DNA from: a virus
Lineage: Duplodnaviria; Heunggongvirae; Uroviricota; Caudoviricetes
Direction: 5' to 3' (one strand)
IMG/VR virus record: IMGVR_UViG_2850796239_000007
Location: 1-38,467 of that record
DNA length: 38,467 nt
A model generated the notes under the pieces. It saw only the letters and a program-made list of their open reading frames with translations. It was not told where the DNA came from and made no database searches. The translations under genes and the position numbers were made by a program. Of the stretch, positions 1 through 38,467 are shown one piece after another (within the stretch, counting starts at the first letter, position 1; each line of letters begins with the position of its first letter).

Positions 1-342
1 ATGATGAAAAAAAGTATTCTGGCGTTTCTGTTACTCACCAGTTCTGCAGCGGCGCTGGCTGCACCGCAGGTGATTACCGTCAGTCGTTTTGAAGTGGGTA
101 AAGACAAATGGGCATTTAACCGCGAAGAGGTGATGCTGACTTGCCGACCGGGTAATGCTTTGTATGTTATTAATCCGAGTACCCTCGTGCAGTATCCTTT
201 AAACGATATCGCACAAAAGGAAGTTGCCAGTGGGAAGACCAATACCCAACCCATTTCGGTGATTCAGATTGATGATCCTAACAATCCCGGCGAAAAAATG
301 AGTCTGGCACCGTTTATAGAACGAGCTGAAAAACTCTGTTAA
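1..342 (+). CDS. small secreted protein, DUF1161/YnfD-like; host-side flank of prophage
   Basis: 113-aa ORF with N-terminal signal peptide ([22 protein letters not shown]); family assignment is from memory, not searched. Confidence 0.6.
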
Positions 343-569
343 TTACCTAAAATAGCCTTTTGATTTCCAATAAAAAAAACGCCTCAGTTCTTTCACCAGA
401 ACGGGCGGTTTTTAACATTTAAGCTGATGACCACCGCGCTTTTTATTGACCATTTTGCACGCAAACTGGAAAACCTGGCGTCGTCATCTATTCTTAAAGG
501 GCAAGGCAACTAAGCCTGCATTAATGCCAACTTTTAGCGCACGGCTCTCTCCCAAGAGCCATTTCCCTG

Positions 570-603
570 GACCGAATACAGGAATCGTATTCGGTCTTTT
601 TTT
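570..603 (+). terminator. Rho-independent terminator-like hairpin
   Basis: GACCGAATA ... TATTCGGTC inverted repeat followed by T7 run. Confidence 0.45.
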
Positions 604-637
604 AATTGCATTTGAAATCAATTAGTTACAAATGCTT

Positions 638-657
638 CCCCGAAATTCCCCGAAATT
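638..657. repeat. tandem 10-bp direct repeat CCCCGAAATT x2 in putative attL arm
   Basis: two perfect adjacent copies about 80 bp from int stop. Confidence 0.5.
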
Positions 658-734
658 TACTCGAATTTCTGTATTCCGGTCTTTTTTGGTTATATCACAA
701 CCAAAATACATTTAACAATCCATTTACGTTAAAA

Positions 735-1811
735 TCAGAGCAGTAAGTACGTTTTTTCTCTCTCATCAAGATACATTTTTGTTGTCTTCTCCGATGTGTG
801 GCCAAGTAGACGCTGAGCAAATTCTTCTCCACATATTTCTTTGTACAATCGTCCAGCCAGGCTTCTGATTTCGTGAAAAGTTGGTGGGTTTTCACTGAAC
901 AGGATACCTGTTAATTTTCTGGCTGCGACAAATTTCTTTGTCAGGCCGTCCGGGTGAATGCTGCCGTCAGGGCTGTTTTTTCTAATCCCGGCACTGATTA
1001 GATAATCCCCCCTACTTACCATGCGGCACTGTTTAACTACTGCACCAAGTCGTAAACCAGCGACAGGAAGGCTGAGTGACAGGGGGATAGCAATCATCAT
1101 TCCTGTCTTAATTTGCCTGATGTGGAGACGATCATCATAAATATCACTGAACCGCATATTCGTTATGTCTTCGCGACGTTGTCCTGTTACAAGGGCTAAG
1201 TCCATAGCTAATGGGAACCATGCCGGAAGTTGATCTGCTGCCTCCCTGATGCAGTTGTATGTCTTTAGTTTCAGCCGTTCTCTTGTAACTACTATTTTCG
1301 GTGCTCTTGTTGGCGTTACTGGATTTTGAGATATACGTCCTTCAACAATGGCTTCGCGGAACATATCAGATAACACAGAACGCATTGATCCTGCCATCGT
1401 GTTTTTCCCTCCTTCAATCCACAAATCAAGAAACTCGGCGATATGGCGAGTGGTTATTTCTGTCAGTAAAACCCCTCCTAATTTTTCTTTTATTGTCTCC
1501 AGTTGATTTACCCGAGTTTTATAAGTATTTCTGGACGCTTTTCTCCTTATAAGAATCGTTTTGTAACGTTCAATCCAGTCTGCCATAGTAAATGAGTCGA
1601 CCCCTTTAAGCTTTTCAATTAGGGCAGCAGGAGAGTAGTTTTTGTATATATAATGATTTGCTTCAATTGCCTGCGCTACTGCATCTCTTCTTGAAATTTT
1701 ACCTAGTGTAAATTCTTCTTTCGTCAGAGGGTTGCGCCAGTAATATGCTTTGTCTCTCCTTCGATATGTTAAGTTTCTAGGCAAATTGGGATCGTATTTT
1801 TTCCGCTGCAT
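735..1811 (-). CDS. int: lambda-type tyrosine integrase
   Basis: 358 aa; lambda Int-like C-terminal catalytic motifs ([15 protein letters not shown], terminal Tyr region); ATG start. Confidence 0.9.
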
Positions 1812-2064
1812 GTTTTAACTTCTCCATTAACGGACTGTCTCTCCCTTGTCGCCCATTAGGCTGATGGTGTGTTATATCGGTATCAACCTTATTTGGGTTG
1901 ATATAGAAAGCCTCCGGAACCACCCTGTAACTCCTCCCGTGTAGTTCAGGTGCAGGATAAATGTTTCCATTCCTTGCCCATCGTCTCAGCGTTGATATTG
2001 ATGGTGGGGTATCCGGATATCTGAGTTTTCCCCACGTTTTGAGTGTCACAAGATTCATTGCCAT
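1777..2064 (-). CDS. xis: excisionase (Xis-like)
   Basis: motif TLRRWARNGNIYPAPELHGRSYRV resembles lambda Xis; overlaps int start; track ORF begins at GTG 2073, ATG at 2064 preferred. Confidence 0.7.
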   Translation of the reverse strand: MAMNLVTLKTWGKLRYPDTPPSISTLRRWARNGNIYPAPELHGRSYRVVPEAFYINPNKVDTDITHHQPNGRQGRDSPLMEKLKHAAEKIRSQFA

Positions 2065-2164
2065 ACCTCTCACGATATGACCGCCAGTAAATATACAGAA
2101 TACTGGCGGGTGTGGTTGATTTTTAATAATCAGCTATGAAGTTCTAATCTGGATATAATGAAAT

Positions 2165-2353
2165 TCACGAGGACTGAAGTTTCTCGCAATTAAAATTTAT
2201 CAGTTTTACTTTCTGCTCTCTGGAAACGCCTGCTTCTTTTTCCCCTGAGAGCATTTTTTCGCATTCTGATTTCGTTAGTTTTGTCTTTGAGTATCTTGTC
2301 CAGCTGGCAGGAGAACCACCTTCCTTTTCAATAGTGGCTGTAATTTTATACAT
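2165..2353 (-). CDS. hypothetical phage protein (62 aa)
   Basis: ATG with GGAGG SD 5 nt upstream; track ORF extended to 2386. Confidence 0.5.
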   Translation of the reverse strand: MYKITATIEKEGGSPASWTRYSKTKLTKSECEKMLSGEKEAGVSREQKVKLINFNCEKLQSS

Positions 2354-2392
2354 GAACACCTCCATTAATATTTTCCCAAAATGCACTTGGTT

Positions 2393-2683
2393 TTACACCG
2401 GAATATTCTCATCGTATCCTGCTTGTTGCGTTTCGTTTTGTGTTTGTGGATCCGGGAATGCATATTCAACGCCTTCCAGTTCAATCCATAGTGCATTACG
2501 ACCAGCTTTGATTGTCGGCCAGTCCATACCTTTGATTCTTTCCCATGAGCGGGAGGTGAATGTTTTTTCCAGCAAATCAGCTTTTGCGCGTTTGGCGTCG
2601 TTACTGGTGCCCCCATGGTGCTTGTTGAGCAACTCGATAATTTCATCAAGTGCGATTTCTTTTGCACGCTTTTCTTTTAGCCA
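2393..2683 (-). pseudogene. 3' portion of early-region gene cut by IS600
   Basis: reading frame open from the IS600 boundary (2683) down to stop at 2393; no ATG start of its own (track start is TTG). Confidence 0.4.
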
Positions 2684-2747
2684 TGAGGTAGCCTGAGTTT
2701 AACGGACACTCCTTCCTGAAATAGAATGGCATCGGAAGGAGCTAATA

Positions 2748-3050
2748 ATGAGCAGAAAAACCCAACGTTACTCTAAAGAGTTCAAAGCCGAAGCTGTCAG
2801 AACGGTTCTTGAAAATCAACTTTCGATCAGTGAAGGCGCTTCCCGATTATCCCTTCCTGAAGGCACTTTAGGACAATGGGTTACCGCCGCCAGAAAAGGG
2901 CTCGGTACTCCTGGTTCCCGCACGGTGGCTGAACTGGAATCTGAAATTCTGCAACTGCGTAAGGCGTTAAATGAAGCTCGCCTTGAGCGAGATATATTAA
3001 AAAAAGCAACAGCGTATTTTGCACAGGAGTCGCTGAAAAATATGCGTTAA
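2748..3050 (+). CDS. IS600 OrfA (HTH transposase subunit)
   Basis: 100 aa; A-rich slippery run near 2998-3004 for OrfAB -1 frameshift. Confidence 0.9.
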   Translation: MSRKTQRYSKEFKAEAVRTVLENQLSISEGASRLSLPEGTLGQWVTAARKGLGTPGSRTVAELESEILQLRKALNEARLERDILKKATAYFAQESLKNMR

Positions 3051-3085
3051 TCGAACAATGGCGACAACAATTTCCCATTGAAGCG

Positions 3086-3904
3086 ATGTGTCAGGTATTT
3101 GGTGTATCCAGGAGCGGTTATTACAACTGGGTACAGCATGAACCCTCAGACAGAAAACAAAGTGATGAGCGGCTAAAACTGGAGATTAAGGTGGCACATA
3201 TCCGCACTCGCGAAACATATGGAACCCGGCGGCTCCAGACGGAGCTGGCAGAGAATGGCATCATCGTTGGTCGTGACCGACTGGCACGTCTTCGTAAGGA
3301 GCTAAGGCTACGCTGTAAGCAGAAACGCAAGTTCAGAGCGACTACGAACCCGAACCACAATCTGCCAGTTGCGCCAAATCTGCTGAACCAGACGTTCGCT
3401 CCTACAGCACCAAATCAGGTCTGGGTGGCGGACCTGACGTATGTTGCCACACAGGAGGGATGGTTGTACCTCGCTGGCATCAAAGATGTTTATACGTGCG
3501 AAATTGTCGGCTACGCCATGGGAGAGCGCATGACAAAAGAGCTGACAGGTAAAGCCCTGTTTATGGCGCTCAGGAGCCAGCGCCCACCTGCCGGGCTAAT
3601 CCACCACTCTGATCGAGGTTCACAGTACTGCGCATACGATTACCGGGTCATACAGGAGCAGTTTGGTCTGAAAACATCAATGTCGCGTAAAGGTAACTGT
3701 TACGACAACGCTCCGATGGAAAGCTTCTGGGGAACGCTGAAAAATGAGAGCCTGAGCCACTATCGTTTTAATAACCGGGATGAAGCCATCTCAGTAATAC
3801 GGGAATACATTGAGATTTTCTACAATCGTCAGCGTCGTCACTCTCGTCTGGGGAATATCTCCCCGGCAGCCTTCAGGGAAAAATATCATCAGATGGCTGC
3901 TTAA
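3086..3904 (+). CDS. IS600 OrfB (DDE transposase catalytic part)
   Basis: 272 aa; -1 frame relative to OrfA. Confidence 0.9.
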   Translation: MCQVFGVSRSGYYNWVQHEPSDRKQSDERLKLEIKVAHIRTRETYGTRRLQTELAENGIIVGRDRLARLRKELRLRCKQKRKFRATTNPNHNLPVAPNLLNQTFAPTAPNQVWVADLTYVATQEGWLYLAGIKDVYTCEIVGYAMGERMTKELTGKALFMALRSQRPPAGLIHHSDRGSQYCAYDYRVIQEQFGLKTSMSRKGNCYDNAPMESFWGTLKNESLSHYRFNNRDEAISVIREYIEIFYNRQRRHSRLGNISPAAFREKYHQMAA

Positions 3905-4774: not shown

Positions 4775-5323
4775 TTATTTTAAAGAAAGTAATTGTTCCA
4801 CAGTCATATTTTTAATTGCGCCCCGGTTAACAAGAGTCCATCCCTGTTTTTCCAGATAAAACCGGAAAGTCTCCAGGGTACAGACCAGTGCGCCATCAGG
4901 AACGGTTTCGGTGAATTCGACATTGCCGAATTTGTCGAAGTGAACAACCAGAGTGCGACCATCTCCCGGAATCATCTTGTCAGCAGGTGGGGTGTTATTC
5001 TGGCGCAGTTCGGCCTCCATGCGGTCTAACTCAGCAATGTAGGCTTCCTTGAATGCGGCGGCTTTTTTGCCAGTGAAGCCCATCACCAGGAAAACGAAGC
5101 CGTTTTTGGTGATTTGGTACATTGGGAGTTTGCGCCCGGTTGAGTCGGTGTATTCGCTCGCCTCAAAATTGAGGGCAGTAAATTTATCTGAGCATTCAAT
5201 ATTTGCGATGGCACGTAACACATTGTCGTGTCGTTTGTGGAAGAACTCTGCAACCGCAACAGACGTAGTGACAGCGCGACCGTTTTCTACGGTTACACAA
5301 GGGTGAGAAAGGGTAGTAGCCAT
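4775..5323 (-). CDS. Rha-family phage regulatory protein (antirepressor-like)
   Basis: motif AVTTSVAVAEFFHKRHDNVLRAIANIEC typical of Rha domain; start set at ATG 5323 (MATTL) because the promoter of the leader module lies inside the longer track ORF. Confidence 0.75.
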   Translation of the reverse strand: MATTLSHPCVTVENGRAVTTSVAVAEFFHKRHDNVLRAIANIECSDKFTALNFEASEYTDSTGRKLPMYQITKNGFVFLVMGFTGKKAAAFKEAYIAELDRMEAELRQNNTPPADKMIPGDGRTLVVHFDKFGNVEFTETVPDGALVCTLETFRFYLEKQGWTLVNRGAIKNMTVEQLLSLK

Positions 5324-5486
5324 GATGGCAGCCTCCGCGATGAATTTGATTAACTCACCACCGGAGGTAGCAATCTCATGGGTGGTGAGACGTACAGGGT
5401 TGCTACAACCGGTCATCACGGAACCCGGCCAGTCTTGCGACTGCCCCGCACGCCCCACCATAATTTGAATGTGGCTGTGCATTACG
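5324..5486 (-). promoter_or_regulatory. structured 5' leader of Rha gene (GNRA hairpin, target site, RBS-proximal hairpin)
   Basis: paralogous to leaders at 7736..7897 and 11849..12009; hairpin CAGTC-GCAA-GACTG at 5430..5443 (minus). Confidence 0.5.
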
Positions 5487-5556
5487 CATAAAAAAACCGC
5501 CTGAGCGCGGTTATGCGCCGTGAATGACTTCGGGGTAGCAATCCCGGCACCCGTTT
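5487..5556 (-). ncRNA. candidate short terminated RNA (c4/IsrK-like) upstream of Rha gene
   Basis: promoter TTGAAA-17-TATAGT (plus coords 5563..5601), two hairpins, intrinsic terminator AACCGCGCTCAGGCGGTT + U7 (5487..5514). Confidence 0.4.
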
Positions 5557-6012
5557 TATGAGGTGCAGGTGCACTATAATTCCACCCGTTCTGGTTTTCA
5601 ATAGCTACATTCAACATTTTCTCTTTCCTTTCATCACCGAAGTGAACTTTGTTGATGCGGTGCCTGGTGCCTCCAGGTGACGTTAACCAGTTAACAATTA
5701 ACGCCGGAATAAGGGATTTTCCTTACTGTTTTAACTGTTCCGCGTGCGCTGAGCCGCATTCACCGCATCACAAAATTCACTTTAAAAAGGGCGGACATCA
5801 GCCAGCAATTAAACCGATGCCGCCAACTGGTACTTCACACAGCAATGTCGTTATTTACAACCGGAGGCGCACTCCCACCATTTAAATTTAACAGACAAGA
5901 CCGACTCTTTATGGATACCGGAAATGCGCCTTCGTGTTGTGCCCGGTTTTATTTCACCACCTCCGGGCTTTGGTGGTATCTTTACTGAAGTTCTCGCACA
6001 ACCAGTAAGGAA

Positions 6013-6102
6013 ATGAATATGCCAACGTATCTCGCCAGAGTAGAACTATATAATGCTGAGCCAGAGGATTACGAAGGGCTTCATAAATATATGCTCTCAC
6101 TA
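6013..6102 (+). pseudogene. 5' part of small gene interrupted by IS5-family element
   Basis: joins in frame with 7021..7170 when IS and one TA copy are removed (80-aa ORF). Confidence 0.45.
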
Positions 6103-6162
6103 GGCTGTGTCCCTTAATCATCTGAGCTATAGTAACTGTCTGTTTACACAACATATTGAACT

Positions 6163-6612
6163 ATGGCTCGCTACGACCTTCCCGATGAGGCATGGACCAT
6201 CATCAAGCCCCTGTTACCTCCTGAACCCGCCACACCACGGGCCGGACGCCCATGGGCTGAGCACCGTAAAATCATCAATGGCATGTTCTGGGTGTTATGT
6301 TCCGGTGCACCATGGCGCGATTTACCCGAACGATATGGGTCATGGAAAACTGTTTATAACCGCTTTAACCGATGGTCAAAGTCAGGCGTGATTAATATTA
6401 TTTTCAACAGGTTGCTTTCGCTACTTGATGCAAACGGCTTTATTGACTGGTCTGCCACCGCGCTGGATGGCAGTAATATCCGGGCGCTGAAATGTGCCGC
6501 CGGTGCTCAAAAAAACATCCCGATATCGACGGAGATAATGGGCTGGGTCGCTCTCGCGGCGGTTTTGGCACCAAAATCCATCTGGCAACAGACGGAAGTG
6601 GCCTCCCGTTAA
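6163..6612 (+). CDS. IS5-family transposase OrfA
   Basis: 149 aa, MARYDLPDEAWTIIKPLLPP...; contains A AAA AAC slippery heptamer at about 6511..6517. Confidence 0.8.
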   Translation: MARYDLPDEAWTIIKPLLPPEPATPRAGRPWAEHRKIINGMFWVLCSGAPWRDLPERYGSWKTVYNRFNRWSKSGVINIIFNRLLSLLDANGFIDWSATALDGSNIRALKCAAGAQKNIPISTEIMGWVALAAVLAPKSIWQQTEVASR

Positions 6613-7007
6613 ATATCGTGCTAAGCCCCGGACAAGCTCATGAAAGCCAGTTCGCGCAACGACTTCTGGACGGGATTGGCGTTCAGCGTCAGAACGGCAG
6701 CATGAAACGCCGTGGACATGCGGTACTGGCTGATAAAGCGTATTCAGGGCGCGCATTGCGCAACGAGCTGAAAAATAACGGTATAAAGGCAGTAATCCCC
6801 CGAAAGTCAAATGAGAAAATGGCATCGGATGGACGTGCACAGCTTGATCGTGATGCGTACCGCAATCGTAATGTCGTTGAACGGTGCTTTGGGCGGCTGA
6901 AAGAATATCGCCGCATCGCCACGCGTTACGACAAAACGGCGAGAAATTACCTGGCGATGGTGAAACTGGGCTGCATCCGACTCTTTTATCAACGCTTACG
7001 TAATTAA
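6492..7007 (+). CDS. IS5-family transposase OrfB (DDE domain), -1 frame
   Basis: 171 aa in -1 frame overlapping OrfA. Confidence 0.8.
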   Translation: MCRRCSKKHPDIDGDNGLGRSRGGFGTKIHLATDGSGLPLNIVLSPGQAHESQFAQRLLDGIGVQRQNGSMKRRGHAVLADKAYSGRALRNELKNNGIKAVIPRKSNEKMASDGRAQLDRDAYRNRNVVERCFGRLKEYRRIATRYDKTARNYLAMVKLGCIRLFYQRLRN

Positions 7008-7020
7008 GGGACACAGCCTA

Positions 7021-7170
7021 GCATCCAGTAATCAGGTTAGCGAATTAACAATGTGGGTTAAACGACTGGTCAGTCAACTGAAAAAAGCTAAGCCTGACTG
7101 CAAATTACCGGAGAAGGCGATGGATTACCTGAAGCGAAATGGACTGATAAGCGTGGAGGATGTTTTACGA
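7021..7170 (+). pseudogene. 3' part of small gene interrupted by IS5-family copy 1
   Basis: in-frame continuation of 6013..6102. Confidence 0.45.
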
Positions 7171-7282: not shown

Positions 7283-7570
7283 TTAAAGAGGTAATTTGAT
7301 GATGGCTGTCAGTGCGCCAACAGCAACGACGAGCATGCCACCAAATCTGACGGTCAGTTGCAGGCTGAGTTTGTCTATTTTTGCATCAAGGGCTGCAATG
7401 TCGTTTTTTAGTTCAGTTCTGACATCATTTAGGTCGCGCTTTGTGGCGACTTCTGCGGCTTCGTGAGAATCTTTCACTGCGGCAGATATAGCGCGCGCCT
7501 GAGCTGCCGGCATTCCTGCGGCTTCCAAGGTTTCGACGAACTTCAGTGTATCAAAATAGACCTGAGCCAT
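7283..7570 (-). CDS. DUF1640-like coiled-coil protein with C-terminal TM helix
   Basis: 95 aa; ATG with AAGGAT SD; family recalled from prophage annotations. Confidence 0.55.
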   Translation of the reverse strand: MAQVYFDTLKFVETLEAAGMPAAQARAISAAVKDSHEAAEVATKRDLNDVRTELKNDIAALDAKIDKLSLQLTVRFGGMLVVAVGALTAIIKLPL

Positions 7571-7657
7571 GTTAAATCCTTCGTTGTTGGGGAATATTGT
7601 TAGTTTAGCCTGTAGTGGCTGTTGACGACAACGTTAATCCGGGGCTATATTCCTCAC

Positions 7658-7735
7658 GCGCCAGCAAAATCTGGCGTCGGGATTGGCGTCCCGGATGTTT
7701 ACGGAGCGATATGAGACGCGTCCGCGTCTTTTTTC
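7658..7735 (+). ncRNA. candidate short terminated RNA (c4/IsrK-like), copy upstream of ORF6N gene 1
   Basis: promoter TTGACG-18-TATATT (7622..7651); hairpins at 7659..7676 and 7677..7692; terminator 7714..7735. Confidence 0.4.
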
Positions 7736-7897
7736 ATATCGTTTGCACAGTCACATTCGCGATTTATGGCGGGCTGTGTGGGGGAGCCGAAAGGCTCGCC
7801 GGTTTCCGTACCCGGTTACGCCAACCCTGCACAGTTCGCCACCAGTTCGATTGGCGTCGTCGGTGGCGATAATTTCCAAATGTACGGAGTTATCGTT
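7736..7897 (+). promoter_or_regulatory. structured leader of ORF6N gene 1
   Basis: GNRA hairpin GAGCC-GAAA-GGCTC 7784..7797; ACGCCAAC site 7818..7825; hairpin TCGCCACC/GGTGGCGA 7846..7869. Confidence 0.5.
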
Positions 7898-8446
7898 ATG
7901 ACCACTCAAATCTCTGTTGAAACTCTCTCCCCGATCGCCCATAACCAGATACCTGTTATTACCACTGAACTTTTGGCGCAGTTGTACGGCACAGAAGCGA
8001 TTCGCATTCAGCAAAATCACGCCAGAAACGCTGAACGTTTTATTGAAGGTAAGCATTTTTATAAGTTAGTGGGCGATGAGCTTAGAGGTATGAAGCACAG
8101 ACTATCTTTAAGCGAGTCTGTGAAAATTGCCCGTAACGTTCGCTCCCTCATTCTCTGGACAGAACGCGGAGCAGCACGTCACGCCAAAATGCTCGAAACC
8201 GATCAGGCGTGGGAAGTATTCGAAAAATTGGAAGACTGCTACTTCAACCAGTACGAGAAAGATCGGGCTACGGGGAAAATGAACATCGATATTCACCTGG
8301 CGATCCGTGATGATAAAACTGCCTTCATCCGAAGTTATGCGCCTGGTCAGCTGGTGACGGTTGAAGAAGCCCTGATGTTGCTTAAATCGCGCGGATGGCT
8401 GGTAATGCCGCGAGATGAACTTGCCGGAAAATTAATGGAGCTTTAA
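7898..8446 (+). CDS. antirepressor-family protein, ORF6N-type N-terminal domain
   Basis: 182 aa from ATG 7898 (MTTQISVETL); paralog of 12010..12567; C-terminal motif shared with Rha protein. Confidence 0.6.
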   Translation: MTTQISVETLSPIAHNQIPVITTELLAQLYGTEAIRIQQNHARNAERFIEGKHFYKLVGDELRGMKHRLSLSESVKIARNVRSLILWTERGAARHAKMLETDQAWEVFEKLEDCYFNQYEKDRATGKMNIDIHLAIRDDKTAFIRSYAPGQLVTVEEALMLLKSRGWLVMPRDELAGKLMEL

Positions 8447-8486: not shown

Positions 8487-8675
8487 AGAACATTACCACC
8501 GGGGATAAAATGATTTGCGGTGAAAGGGAAGTTAAGTAGAATTGCTGCGGGTGCTTGAGGCTATCTGTCTCAGGCATGAACACCAAAAGGCAGATGAGAA
8601 GCCCCAGTTAACATTACGCGTCCTGCAAGACGCTTAACATTAATCTGAGGCCAATTTCATGCTAGGCTGTGTCCC

Positions 8676-27836: not shown

Positions 27837-27961
27837 TGACCTTGCGTCCGTCACTGGAGGGATTTATTCGCTTTGTTCGTGACGACATGAAAGTATCGGT
27901 TCACGCTATTGCTGACGATGATCCGACGCTGGAATGTTGCTTTCAGTCTGCTATGGAGCTA
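27836..27961 (+). pseudogene. 5' part of structural gene interrupted by IS5-family copy 3
   Basis: joins in frame with 28879..29193 to give a 146-codon ORF. Confidence 0.5.
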
Positions 27962-28021
27962 GGCTGTGTCCCTTAATCATCTGAGCTATAGTAACTGTCT
28001 GTTTACACAACATATTGAACT

Positions 28022-28471
28022 ATGGCTCGCTACGACCTTCCCGATGAGGCATGGACCATCATCAAGCCCCTGTTACCTCCTGAACCCGCCACACCACGGG
28101 CCGGACGCCCATGGGCTGAGCACCGTAAAATCATCAATGGCATGTTCTGGGTGTTATGTTCCGGTGCACCATGGCGCGATTTACCCGAACGATATGGGTC
28201 ATGGAAAACTGTTTATAACCGCTTTAACCGATGGTCAAAGTCAGGCGTGATTAATATTATTTTCAACAGGTTGCTTTCGCTACTTGATGCAAACGGCTTT
28301 ATTGACTGGTCTGCCACCGCGCTGGATGGCAGTAATATCCGGGCGCTGAAATGTGCCGCCGGTGCTCAAAAAAACATCCCGATATCGACGGAGATAATGG
28401 GCTGGGTCGCTCTCGCGGCGGTTTTGGCACCAAAATCCATCTGGCAACAGACGGAAGTGGCCTCCCGTTAA
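28022..28471 (+). CDS. IS5-family transposase OrfA (copy 3)
   Basis: identical 149-aa product. Confidence 0.8.
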   Translation: MARYDLPDEAWTIIKPLLPPEPATPRAGRPWAEHRKIINGMFWVLCSGAPWRDLPERYGSWKTVYNRFNRWSKSGVINIIFNRLLSLLDANGFIDWSATALDGSNIRALKCAAGAQKNIPISTEIMGWVALAAVLAPKSIWQQTEVASR

Positions 28472-28758
28472 ATATCGTGCTAAGCCCCGGACAAGCTCAT
28501 GAAAGCCAGTTCGCGCAACGACTTCTGGACGGGATTGGCGTTCAGCGTCAGAACGGCAGCATGAAACGCCGTGGACATGCGGTACTGGCTGATAAAGCGT
28601 ATTCAGGGCGCGCATTGCGCAACGAGCTGAAAAATAACGGTATAAAGGCAGTAATCCCCGAAAGTCAAATGAGAAAATGGCATCGGATGGACGTGCACAG
28701 CTTGATCGTGATGCGTACCGCAATCGTAATGTCGTTGAACGGTGCTTTGGGCGGCTGA
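28351..28758 (+). pseudogene. IS5-family transposase OrfB, frameshifted in copy 3
   Basis: CCCCC to CCCC at about 28654 changes reading frame. Confidence 0.6.
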
Positions 28759-28878
28759 AAGAATATCGCCGCATCGCCACGCGTTACGACAAAACGGCGA
28801 GAAATTACCTGGCGATGGTGAAACTGGGCTGCATCCGACTCTTTTATCAACGCTTACGTAATTAAGGGACACAGCCTA

Positions 28879-32639: not shown

Positions 32640-34597
<1,958 letters not shown>

Positions 34598-37087: not shown

Positions 37088-37290
37088 TTATTCCTCTGGG
37101 TAAGCTGAGCTAATCAAGGTATCTTCCTGCATACGATTAATATGAGATGTGGTTCTTTCATCAATAACCTTTCCATCAAGTACCGTCTGAGTTGTGATAT
37201 TGATTGTCTGAGGCTGAATATTTACTGACGGCTTGATAACCTTTAAATCTTGTGTGAATGTTTCCACTCGACCTTTCAGATTATTTAATG
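37088..37290 (-). pseudogene. 3' fragment of unknown gene W, interrupted by IS911
   Basis: frame open from the IS911 boundary to stop 3 nt upstream of gene X start. Confidence 0.35.
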
Positions 37291-37298
37291 TGAAGTGG

Positions 37299-38467
<1,169 letters not shown>

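Follow-up and report, generated by a model that had tools for sequence, protein, structure and literature searches.

A probable P1 immI/Gifsy-1 isrK-type RNA switch upstream of an antirepressor-like ORF6N gene in an IS-ridden lambdoid prophage

The region 7622–7897 of a 38,467-nucleotide stretch of viral DNA, here called the window, is very probably (at roughly 85%) an RNA switch of the P1 immI and Gifsy-1 isrK type that controls the antirepressor-like ORF6N gene downstream of it in a lambdoid prophage. In this analysis the assignment is based on family membership, on the fold, on the positions of six short specificity sites and on their co-variation; that the C4 antisense RNA is processed and acts in trans, that it represses and the short RNA activates, and that the protein works as an antirepressor is presumed from the P1 and IsrK literature. 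The element is an already known one, ordinary though real and under selection, and carries little weight as a discovery, the RNA families being curated and the prototypes (P1 c4 and Gifsy-1 IsrK) experimentally studied. It is of use for annotation: three RNA-controlled antirepressor-like genes are marked in a single prophage rich in IS elements, and prophage induction can be driven by switches of this kind. Mildly new, at the level of curation, are three points: the equivalence of isrK with the c4-a1b1 element, the probable C4 nature of the orf45/STnc1160 region, and the frequent sharing of a single specificity site between modules.

Organization of the locus

The whole window was scanned with Rfam at the curated gathering thresholds. 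Three families, isrK, c4-a1b1 and C4, were found at 7622–7897 (copy 1), in order and on the strand of the downstream gene, with E-values for the region of 1e-13 to 1e-14. The locus begins with a sigma-70 promoter at 7622–7651 on the plus strand, consisting of TTGACG (7622–7627), an 18-nt spacer and TATATT (7646–7651), as the original prediction had described it. The promoter matches the consensus at 10 of 12 positions and is the sole promoter-like site within 7400–8000. Transcription is predicted to start at about 7658, the position at which the Rfam isrK match begins.

The short IsrK-type RNA (RF01394; 7658–7734, plus strand) scores 75.1 bits against a cut-off of 50, and in the predicted fold consists of hairpin 1, hairpin 2 with site a1 in its loop, site b1 and an intrinsic terminator. 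The c4-a1b1 motif (RF03163; 7645–7697, plus strand; 52.2 bits, cut-off 46.7), which represents the upstream C4 target sites, overlaps the 5' half of this RNA. The terminator (7713–7735, plus strand) is formed by GAGACGC-GUCC-GCGUCUU followed by a U run, with the stem at 7713–7730 and the T run extending to 7734; that its sequence is unlike the terminator of the second copy was borne out.

The C4 antisense RNA lies further downstream at 7762–7846 on the plus strand (RF01695, a member of Rfam clan CL00128), with 77.6 bits against a cut-off of 45. The match covers model positions 1–87 of 87 (E = 1.1e-13). Its fold comprises a 17-bp closing stem (7767–7783 with 7825–7841) that encloses inner hairpin 1 (7784–7797) and hairpin 2 (7798–7816), and is reproduced by the MFE structure. 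The leader folds with a z-score of -5.5. Given this value and the Rfam E-values, the features of copy 1 far exceed chance.

The regulated gene (7898–8446, plus strand; ATG at 7898) encodes a 182-aa ORF6N-domain protein (Pfam PF10543, 73 bits), annotated in E. coli as 'ORF6N domain-containing protein'. At the level of annotation only, this protein and the Rha-family protein encoded downstream of the third copy appear antirepressor-like. No Q gene adjoins copy 1, in agreement with the original prediction; the upstream neighbors are a divergent 95-aa ORF (7283–7570) and an IS copy.

Specificity sites of copy 1

The sites were named after P1 usage (a1, b1, a', b', a2, b2) and located by a complementarity search limited to the unpaired a' and b' segments of C4. 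RNAduplex calculations that set C4 in full against full-length IsrK or downstream segments gave long duplexes for cognate and non-cognate partners and were discarded as uninformative.

Within C4, b' (UUCCGUAC, 7804–7811) occupies the loop of hairpin 2, equivalent to the P1 b' loop, and a' (ACGCCAA, 7818–7824) is the single strand 3' of that hairpin. Upstream, a1 (UUGGCGU, 7683–7689) is in the loop of hairpin 2 of the short RNA and forms 7 bp with a', and b1 (UACGGAG, 7700–7706), just 5' of the terminator, forms 7 bp with b'. Downstream, a2 (UUGGCGU, 7851–7857) begins 5 nt past the end of C4 and forms 7 bp with a', and b2 (GUACGGAG, 7882–7889) forms 8 bp with b' and includes the Shine-Dalgarno sequence GGAG. 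All six sites are on the plus strand. The b2 site ends 8 nt 5' of the ATG at 7898 and sits on the ribosome-binding site (RBS) of the ORF6N gene itself.

One of these contacts had been seen in the original prediction, which paired a loop ATTGGCGT (7682–7689) with a target ACGCCAAC (7818–7825). Both sequences are present and their complementarity, that of a1 with a', is real and co-varies across homologs; the pairing extends over seven positions rather than eight, UUGGCGU at 7683–7689 with ACGCCAA at 7818–7824. The leader had been taken solely for a target of the short RNA. The a1/a' contact was correctly recognized, and the leader hairpins turn out to be the C4 antisense RNA itself. The b1/b' pair, a2 and the RBS-covering b2 were absent from that description, and the RBS-covering target site is the point of the whole system.

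Two further modules in the window

The 7622–7897 region aligns over its full length with 11731–12015 and more loosely with the minus strand at 5318–5625. The architecture attributed to 11737–12009 is indeed shared, in that a module consisting of a promoter, a short terminated RNA, a structured leader and an ORF6N gene is repeated. Copy 2 (11737–12009, plus strand) lies directly 3' of a DUF1133/antitermQ (Q-like) gene (11066–11740) that abuts it, and is followed by an ORF6N gene at 12010–12567. All three Rfam families recur at 11760–11958, with isrK at 11773–11847 and C4 at 11874–11958 (both plus strand). The complementarity search placed a1 at 11798–11804, b1 at 11813–11820, a2 at 11962–11968 and b2 at 11992–11999 on the same strand. 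The a sequence is that of copy 1; the b sequence differs (b' UGUUUCGA; b1 and b2 UCGAAACG), and b2 stops 2 nt before the Shine-Dalgarno sequence, without overlap.

Copy 3 (5324–5601, minus strand) is located 5' of a Rha-family gene (5323–4775) and has a promoter TTGAAA-17-TATAGT at 5601–5573. At 5378–5566 on the minus strand, isrK (5566–5490) and C4 (5465–5378) reach their cut-offs in the Rfam scan of the window, and c4-a1b1 stays below its own. Sites a1 (5541–5535), a2 (5373–5367) and b2 (5343–5333) were obtained from the complementarity search on the minus strand. Both specificities differ from those of copy 1 (a' GUAGCAA, b' UUCCGUGAUGA), and a1, a2 and b2 match them. The b1 site was not recovered by the ungapped complementarity search; read by eye, it matches only with a one-base bulge.

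Covariation and selection on RNA structure

The two leader hairpins had been reported to differ between copies 1 and 2 by compensatory changes, from which selection on RNA was concluded. The hairpin GAGCC-GAAA-GGCTC (7784–7797) and its copy 2 counterpart GAGTT-GAGA-GACTC are present as described, with one C-G pair changed to U-A and one C-G pair to U-G from copy 1 to copy 2. The stem TCGCCACC (7836–7843)/GGTGGCGA (7862–7869) and the corresponding TCACCACC/GGTGGTGA of copy 2 are likewise found. Across homologs the argument holds for the GNRA hairpin, at the 7784–7797 equivalent of which five of five pairs are compensatory, and is weak for the second stem (4/8 pairs).

For this comparison, 210 loci encoding relatives of the ORF6N or Rha proteins were collected, and a C4 covariance model of our own, R1, was built from 13 sequences above the Rfam threshold. 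R1 scores the C4 of copy 1 at 90.6 bits and, in a search for further copies among relatives as the original prediction had suggested, identified 160 C4 copies (102 unique modules) in related loci. C4 is found about 50 nt 5' of the start codon in nearly every ORF6N/Rha locus fetched from IMG/VR. In 63 distinct sequences, P1 included, 99% of the cells of the C4 fold are paired and 18 of the 27 pairs show compensatory changes, with both sides changed. None of 500 shuffles reached this value, and slid-register controls gave at most 7 pairs.

Among the 102 unique modules, 30 b' types and about 17 a' types occur in 57 combinations. The targets keep their positions across homologs: a1 and b1 lie at about -77 and -61 relative to the C4 start, a2 follows C4 at +4, and b2 follows it at +31 to +38. 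In copy 1, copy 3 and most homologs, b2 overlies the Shine-Dalgarno sequence and matches the cognate loop. Mean complementarity runs at a1, b1, a2 and b2 are 7.2–8.9 bp for cognate and 4.3–5.8 bp for non-cognate combinations, and at each of the four sites 0 of 10,000 permutations reached the observed cognate mean. All four target sites co-vary with a'/b'. On the alignment, pairing of a' with a2 is kept in 92%, with six of seven pairs compensatory. A hairpin followed by a T run is present about 30 nt 5' of C4 in all 76 unique upstream segments (76/76), in 35 different sequences.

The stem 7836–7843/7862–7869 has a different behavior. Its downstream strand (GGUGGCGA, 7862–7869, plus strand) can pair with 7836–7843, the 3' strand of the C4 closing stem, and the helix is 96% paired and nearly invariant across homologs; its covariation involves 4 of 8 pairs and 9 cells, mostly at one G-U-tolerant position. 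The helix competes with the C4 closing stem by using its 3' strand, and can therefore form only in the unprocessed transcript. A conserved block GGUGGUGA located 3' of a2 can pair with that same 3' strand, which would place a2 in a hairpin loop; an equivalent helix can be formed in P1, and in a further locus (L212) at about 412–420 with 434–442. This a2-looping helix might time C4 processing or present a2.

As seen from the compensatory pairs and from an overlapping ORF that varies in frame and length, selection acts on RNA structure and not on protein.

Shared sites between co-resident modules

Copies 1 and 2 share their a site. Pairs of modules in three homologous loci, L003 (C4 at 38–125 and 2363–2449), L007 (2365–2451 and 3370–3456) and L157 (442–529 and 856–943, approximately 330 nt apart), each share exactly one site as well. 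Sharing of one site between co-resident modules could have arisen when a module was duplicated locally and one of its sites was then replaced, or could be a deliberate partial cross-wiring. It is conceivable from these sequences, if on balance rather unlikely, that the a and b sites are two independently exchangeable 'address' modules and that the three antirepressor switches of the window are partly cross-wired via shared contacts. If the sharing were functional and not a by-product of duplication, shared decoy and antisense contacts would link the switches, which would then not be independent immunity units.

Proposed mechanism and alternative readings

In the proposed mechanism, the single promoter at 7622–7651 would drive both the short RNA and a long transcript. 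Most transcripts probably end at the terminator (7713–7735), yielding a short RNA of about 77 nt with a1 and b1, and those that read through would include the C4 RNA (7762–7846). By analogy with P1, C4 would be excised and act as an antisense repressor, with the single-stranded a' pairing to a2 (7851–7857) and the loop b' to b2 (7882–7889). With the Shine-Dalgarno sequence inside b2, paired C4 would leave the ORF6N gene untranslated, and occlusion of its RBS via a'/a2 and b'/b2 is the most likely mode of action. The short RNA has the same two sequences as the mRNA target and would hence compete for a'/b', whether C4 is free or still folded within the long transcript. In excess, it would serve as a decoy that frees the RBS and switches the ORF6N gene on.

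A simpler circuit, in which regulation comes from the short RNA and the leader is no more than its target in cis or trans, with the loop AUUGGCGU pairing to ACGCCAAC and no separate antisense RNA released, is improbable. It accommodates the a1/a' complementarity, which is real and co-varying, and corresponds to the way regulation is framed for IsrK, with trans activation by the short RNA (PMC4825925). It leaves unexplained, however, why a2 and b2 occupy fixed downstream positions and co-vary with the same a'/b', and it does not fit the leader being a full-length C4 match, the P1 annotation of a separate 77-nt RNA that acts on a2/b2, or the processed species of about 80 nt seen in Salmonella (PMC4825925). 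Even less likely is a mode like that of P4 CI, in which C4 acts mainly on transcription and a translation block is not the main effect; pairing at a1/b1 on the nascent leader would then promote termination at 7713–7735, and pairing at a2/b2 premature termination. The placement of a1/b1 directly 5' of the terminator is compatible with it, and the IsrK authors suggest it for STnc1160 by analogy with P4 CI and its seqA/seqC sites (PMC4825925). That b2 sits on the Shine-Dalgarno sequence in copies 1 and 3, as it does in most homologs, points instead to translational control, and constitutive STnc1160 left the IsrK-mediated growth arrest undiminished (PMC4825925). Transcriptional and translational modes are not mutually exclusive.

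The chance that the leader is conserved for a peptide, with the ATG at 7766 either starting an ORF upstream of the gene or extending the ORF6N protein at its N terminus, is close to nil. An uninterrupted in-frame ORF (7766–8446) does run from the AUG in the C4 stem into the ORF6N gene, and orf45 of Gifsy-1, at the same relative position, is translated and required for coupling (PMC4825925). Across 66 unique modules, however, the ORF from the equivalent AUG either spans 8–45 aa or is fused, and the conserved block 3' of it is distributed over all three frames (30/16/12); substitutions are compensatory with respect to RNA pairing, and orf45 itself is, according to the IsrK authors, conserved as nucleotides and variable as amino acids (PMC4825925). 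We rejected this reading on the variable length and frame of the ORF across homologs. Occlusion of the RBS by C4 is retained as the preferred reading for copy 1; details in Gifsy-1 may differ, since coupling is via orf45 there, whereas here b2 lies on the ORF6N RBS and the upstream ORF is not conserved.

Genomic context and distribution

The element is widespread: of 5426 complete E. coli genomes, 4329 gave a match, as did 281 phage records. Most of these records are Stx-converting phages; SfV and APSE are also among them, and in one APSE record the a' and b' regions of C4 are annotated. Copies 1 and 2 belong to one prophage. Gene order is the same in an E. coli relative that lacks the interruption, where the module is found between the replication genes and a hok-DUF1367-DUF1364-DUF1133(Q) cluster. 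The left end of the window (1–2700) contains yebY, the SdsR/RyeB and SraC/RyeA sRNA pair (463–607), an integrase gene (735–1811, minus strand) and an excisionase gene, with the RalA antitoxin sRNA at 2169–2347. The succession of yebY, sdsR/ryeA and integrase indicates a prophage inserted beside sdsR, and E. coli RMDEC465, which carries the closest homolog of copy 1, has the same insertion site. Four tRNA genes at 12775–13082 lie directly 3' of the copy 2 ORF6N gene, their usual position between the Q and lysis genes in lambdoid and Stx-type phages.

An IS4/5-family element with DUF4096 transposase ORFs is present in three copies (6100–7024, 8659–9583 and 27959–28878). Between the first two, identity is 100% over 925 nt; they lie in inverted orientation and flank copy 1 with its ORF6N gene. 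The third shows a 1-nt register shift. We considered whether the IS-flanked segment had been inverted and rejected this, as gene order and orientation equal those of the uninterrupted E. coli prophage. The ORF of a Hok/Gef-family toxin (9529–9789) starts at the edge of the second IS copy, and this insertion may have cut hok off from its upstream regulatory region. An IS3-family (IS600-like) orfA/orfB pair is located at 2748–3904; a 252-nt segment of it recurs in identical form at 34346–34597, and further inverted repeats lie at 33780–34347 and 37290–37858. This high density of IS elements suggests that the prophage background is Shigella-like or decaying. IS elements break up the prophage, and the switch may no longer control anything useful.

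Comparison with known systems

A second RNA family takes the position of C4 in some relatives. In Pectobacterium, Entomohabitans, Symbiopectobacterium and Arsenophonus, sRNA-Xcc1 (RF02221) is found 5' of ORF6N genes (L004, 2376–2461; L006, 2137–2220 and 2708–2792; also L009, L010 and L013). In L004, the hairpin loop UUUCUUUUGC of sRNA-Xcc1 is complementary to GCAAAAGAGG at the Shine-Dalgarno sequence, and this RNA appears from its sequence to work in the same way as C4. The two belong to different Rfam families, and the copies in the window score as C4 and not as Xcc1. In APSE phages, isrK has been reported to occur together with C4, and sRNA-Xcc1 together with ORF6N genes (PMC7313666).

The CI RNA of satellite phage P4 is processed from the leader of the operon that it controls and has the complementary sites seqA and seqC (PMC4825925). 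Likened by description only, the module would share with P4 CI an antisense RNA derived from the leader and complementary sites on either side of it. The effect of P4 CI is to terminate transcription of the replication genes prematurely, whereas the downstream site here is on an RBS.

The isrK-orf45-anrP-isrJ locus of Gifsy-1 in Salmonella was described by Hershko-Shalev et al. (2016; PMC4825925). Partial read-through of the IsrK terminator gives a translationally silent mRNA, and the short IsrK, which binds Hfq, activates in trans the translation of its own read-through mRNA; activation goes via the translated orf45, coupled to anrP, and from the part of the read-through transcript downstream of IsrK an RNA of about 80 nt, STnc1160, is processed (PMC4825925). 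The module of the window would resemble this locus in having one promoter, a short terminated RNA together with a read-through mRNA, and an antirepressor-like gene behind. Copy 2 directly follows a Q-like gene as Gifsy-1 isrK follows antQ, and copy 1 differs from Gifsy-1 isrK in this respect. A conserved equivalent of orf45 was not found among 66 unique modules, and in copy 1 the ORF at that place is fused in frame to the gene. The published Gifsy-1 model does not invoke C4, and a link of orf45/STnc1160 to C4 is absent from the IsrK paper (PMC4825925) and from a 2025 review. By its position and size, the orf45/STnc1160 region is probably a C4 RNA, and the published IsrK biology could, if this is true, be reinterpreted as a C4/a1b1 decoy circuit. 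The same isrK, C4 and ORF6N layout is present in a Salmonella homolog (L005), which is distinct from the SL1344 Gifsy-1 copy and has an upstream ORF of only 16 codons. The comparison shows that one and the same upstream element is described by the isrK and c4-a1b1 families.

A parallel in layout is drawn with P1 and P7. Work by Citron and Schuster in 1990 and 1992 is said to have described the c4 antisense RNA of P1/P7 immI, with a1/b1 and a2/b2 upstream of icd-ant, and P1 c4 is reportedly excised from the leader, with RNase P acting at its 5' end, as a trans-acting RNA of about 77 nt (1992). The GenBank annotation of P1 immI gives the order promoters, a1, b1, a 77-nt c4 RNA, a2, b2, icd and ant1/ant2, with a2 located 4 nt past c4, b2 on the icd RBS, and a2/b2 as sites of icd-ant translational repression. 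Synthesis of Ant is repressed by c4 in P1 (PMC8546580). Scanned with Rfam, P1 immI yields a C4 match of 68.8 bits and a c4-a1b1 match in the annotated a1/b1 region; the second inner hairpin carries b' as its loop and is followed by a' as a single strand. The upstream part of P1 stays below the isrK cut-off, unlike that of the window, which scores as isrK. The protein regulated here is of the ORF6N or Rha type instead of Ant1/2, copy 1 has no icd-like ORF in between and carries b2 on the ORF6N RBS itself, and the host element is a chromosomal lambdoid prophage with three modules, not one. In common with P1 are the promoter, the hairpin with a1 in its loop, b1, the terminator-like hairpin, the C4 fold, a2, the location of b2 on the RBS of the first ORF, and an antirepressor-type gene downstream. 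As in P1/P7, specificity resides in short a/b sequences, which change in concert across the six sites: the classical heteroimmune pair P1 and P7 differ by 2 nt in each of the six and almost nowhere else, and the differing specificities of the copies in the window mirror this pair.
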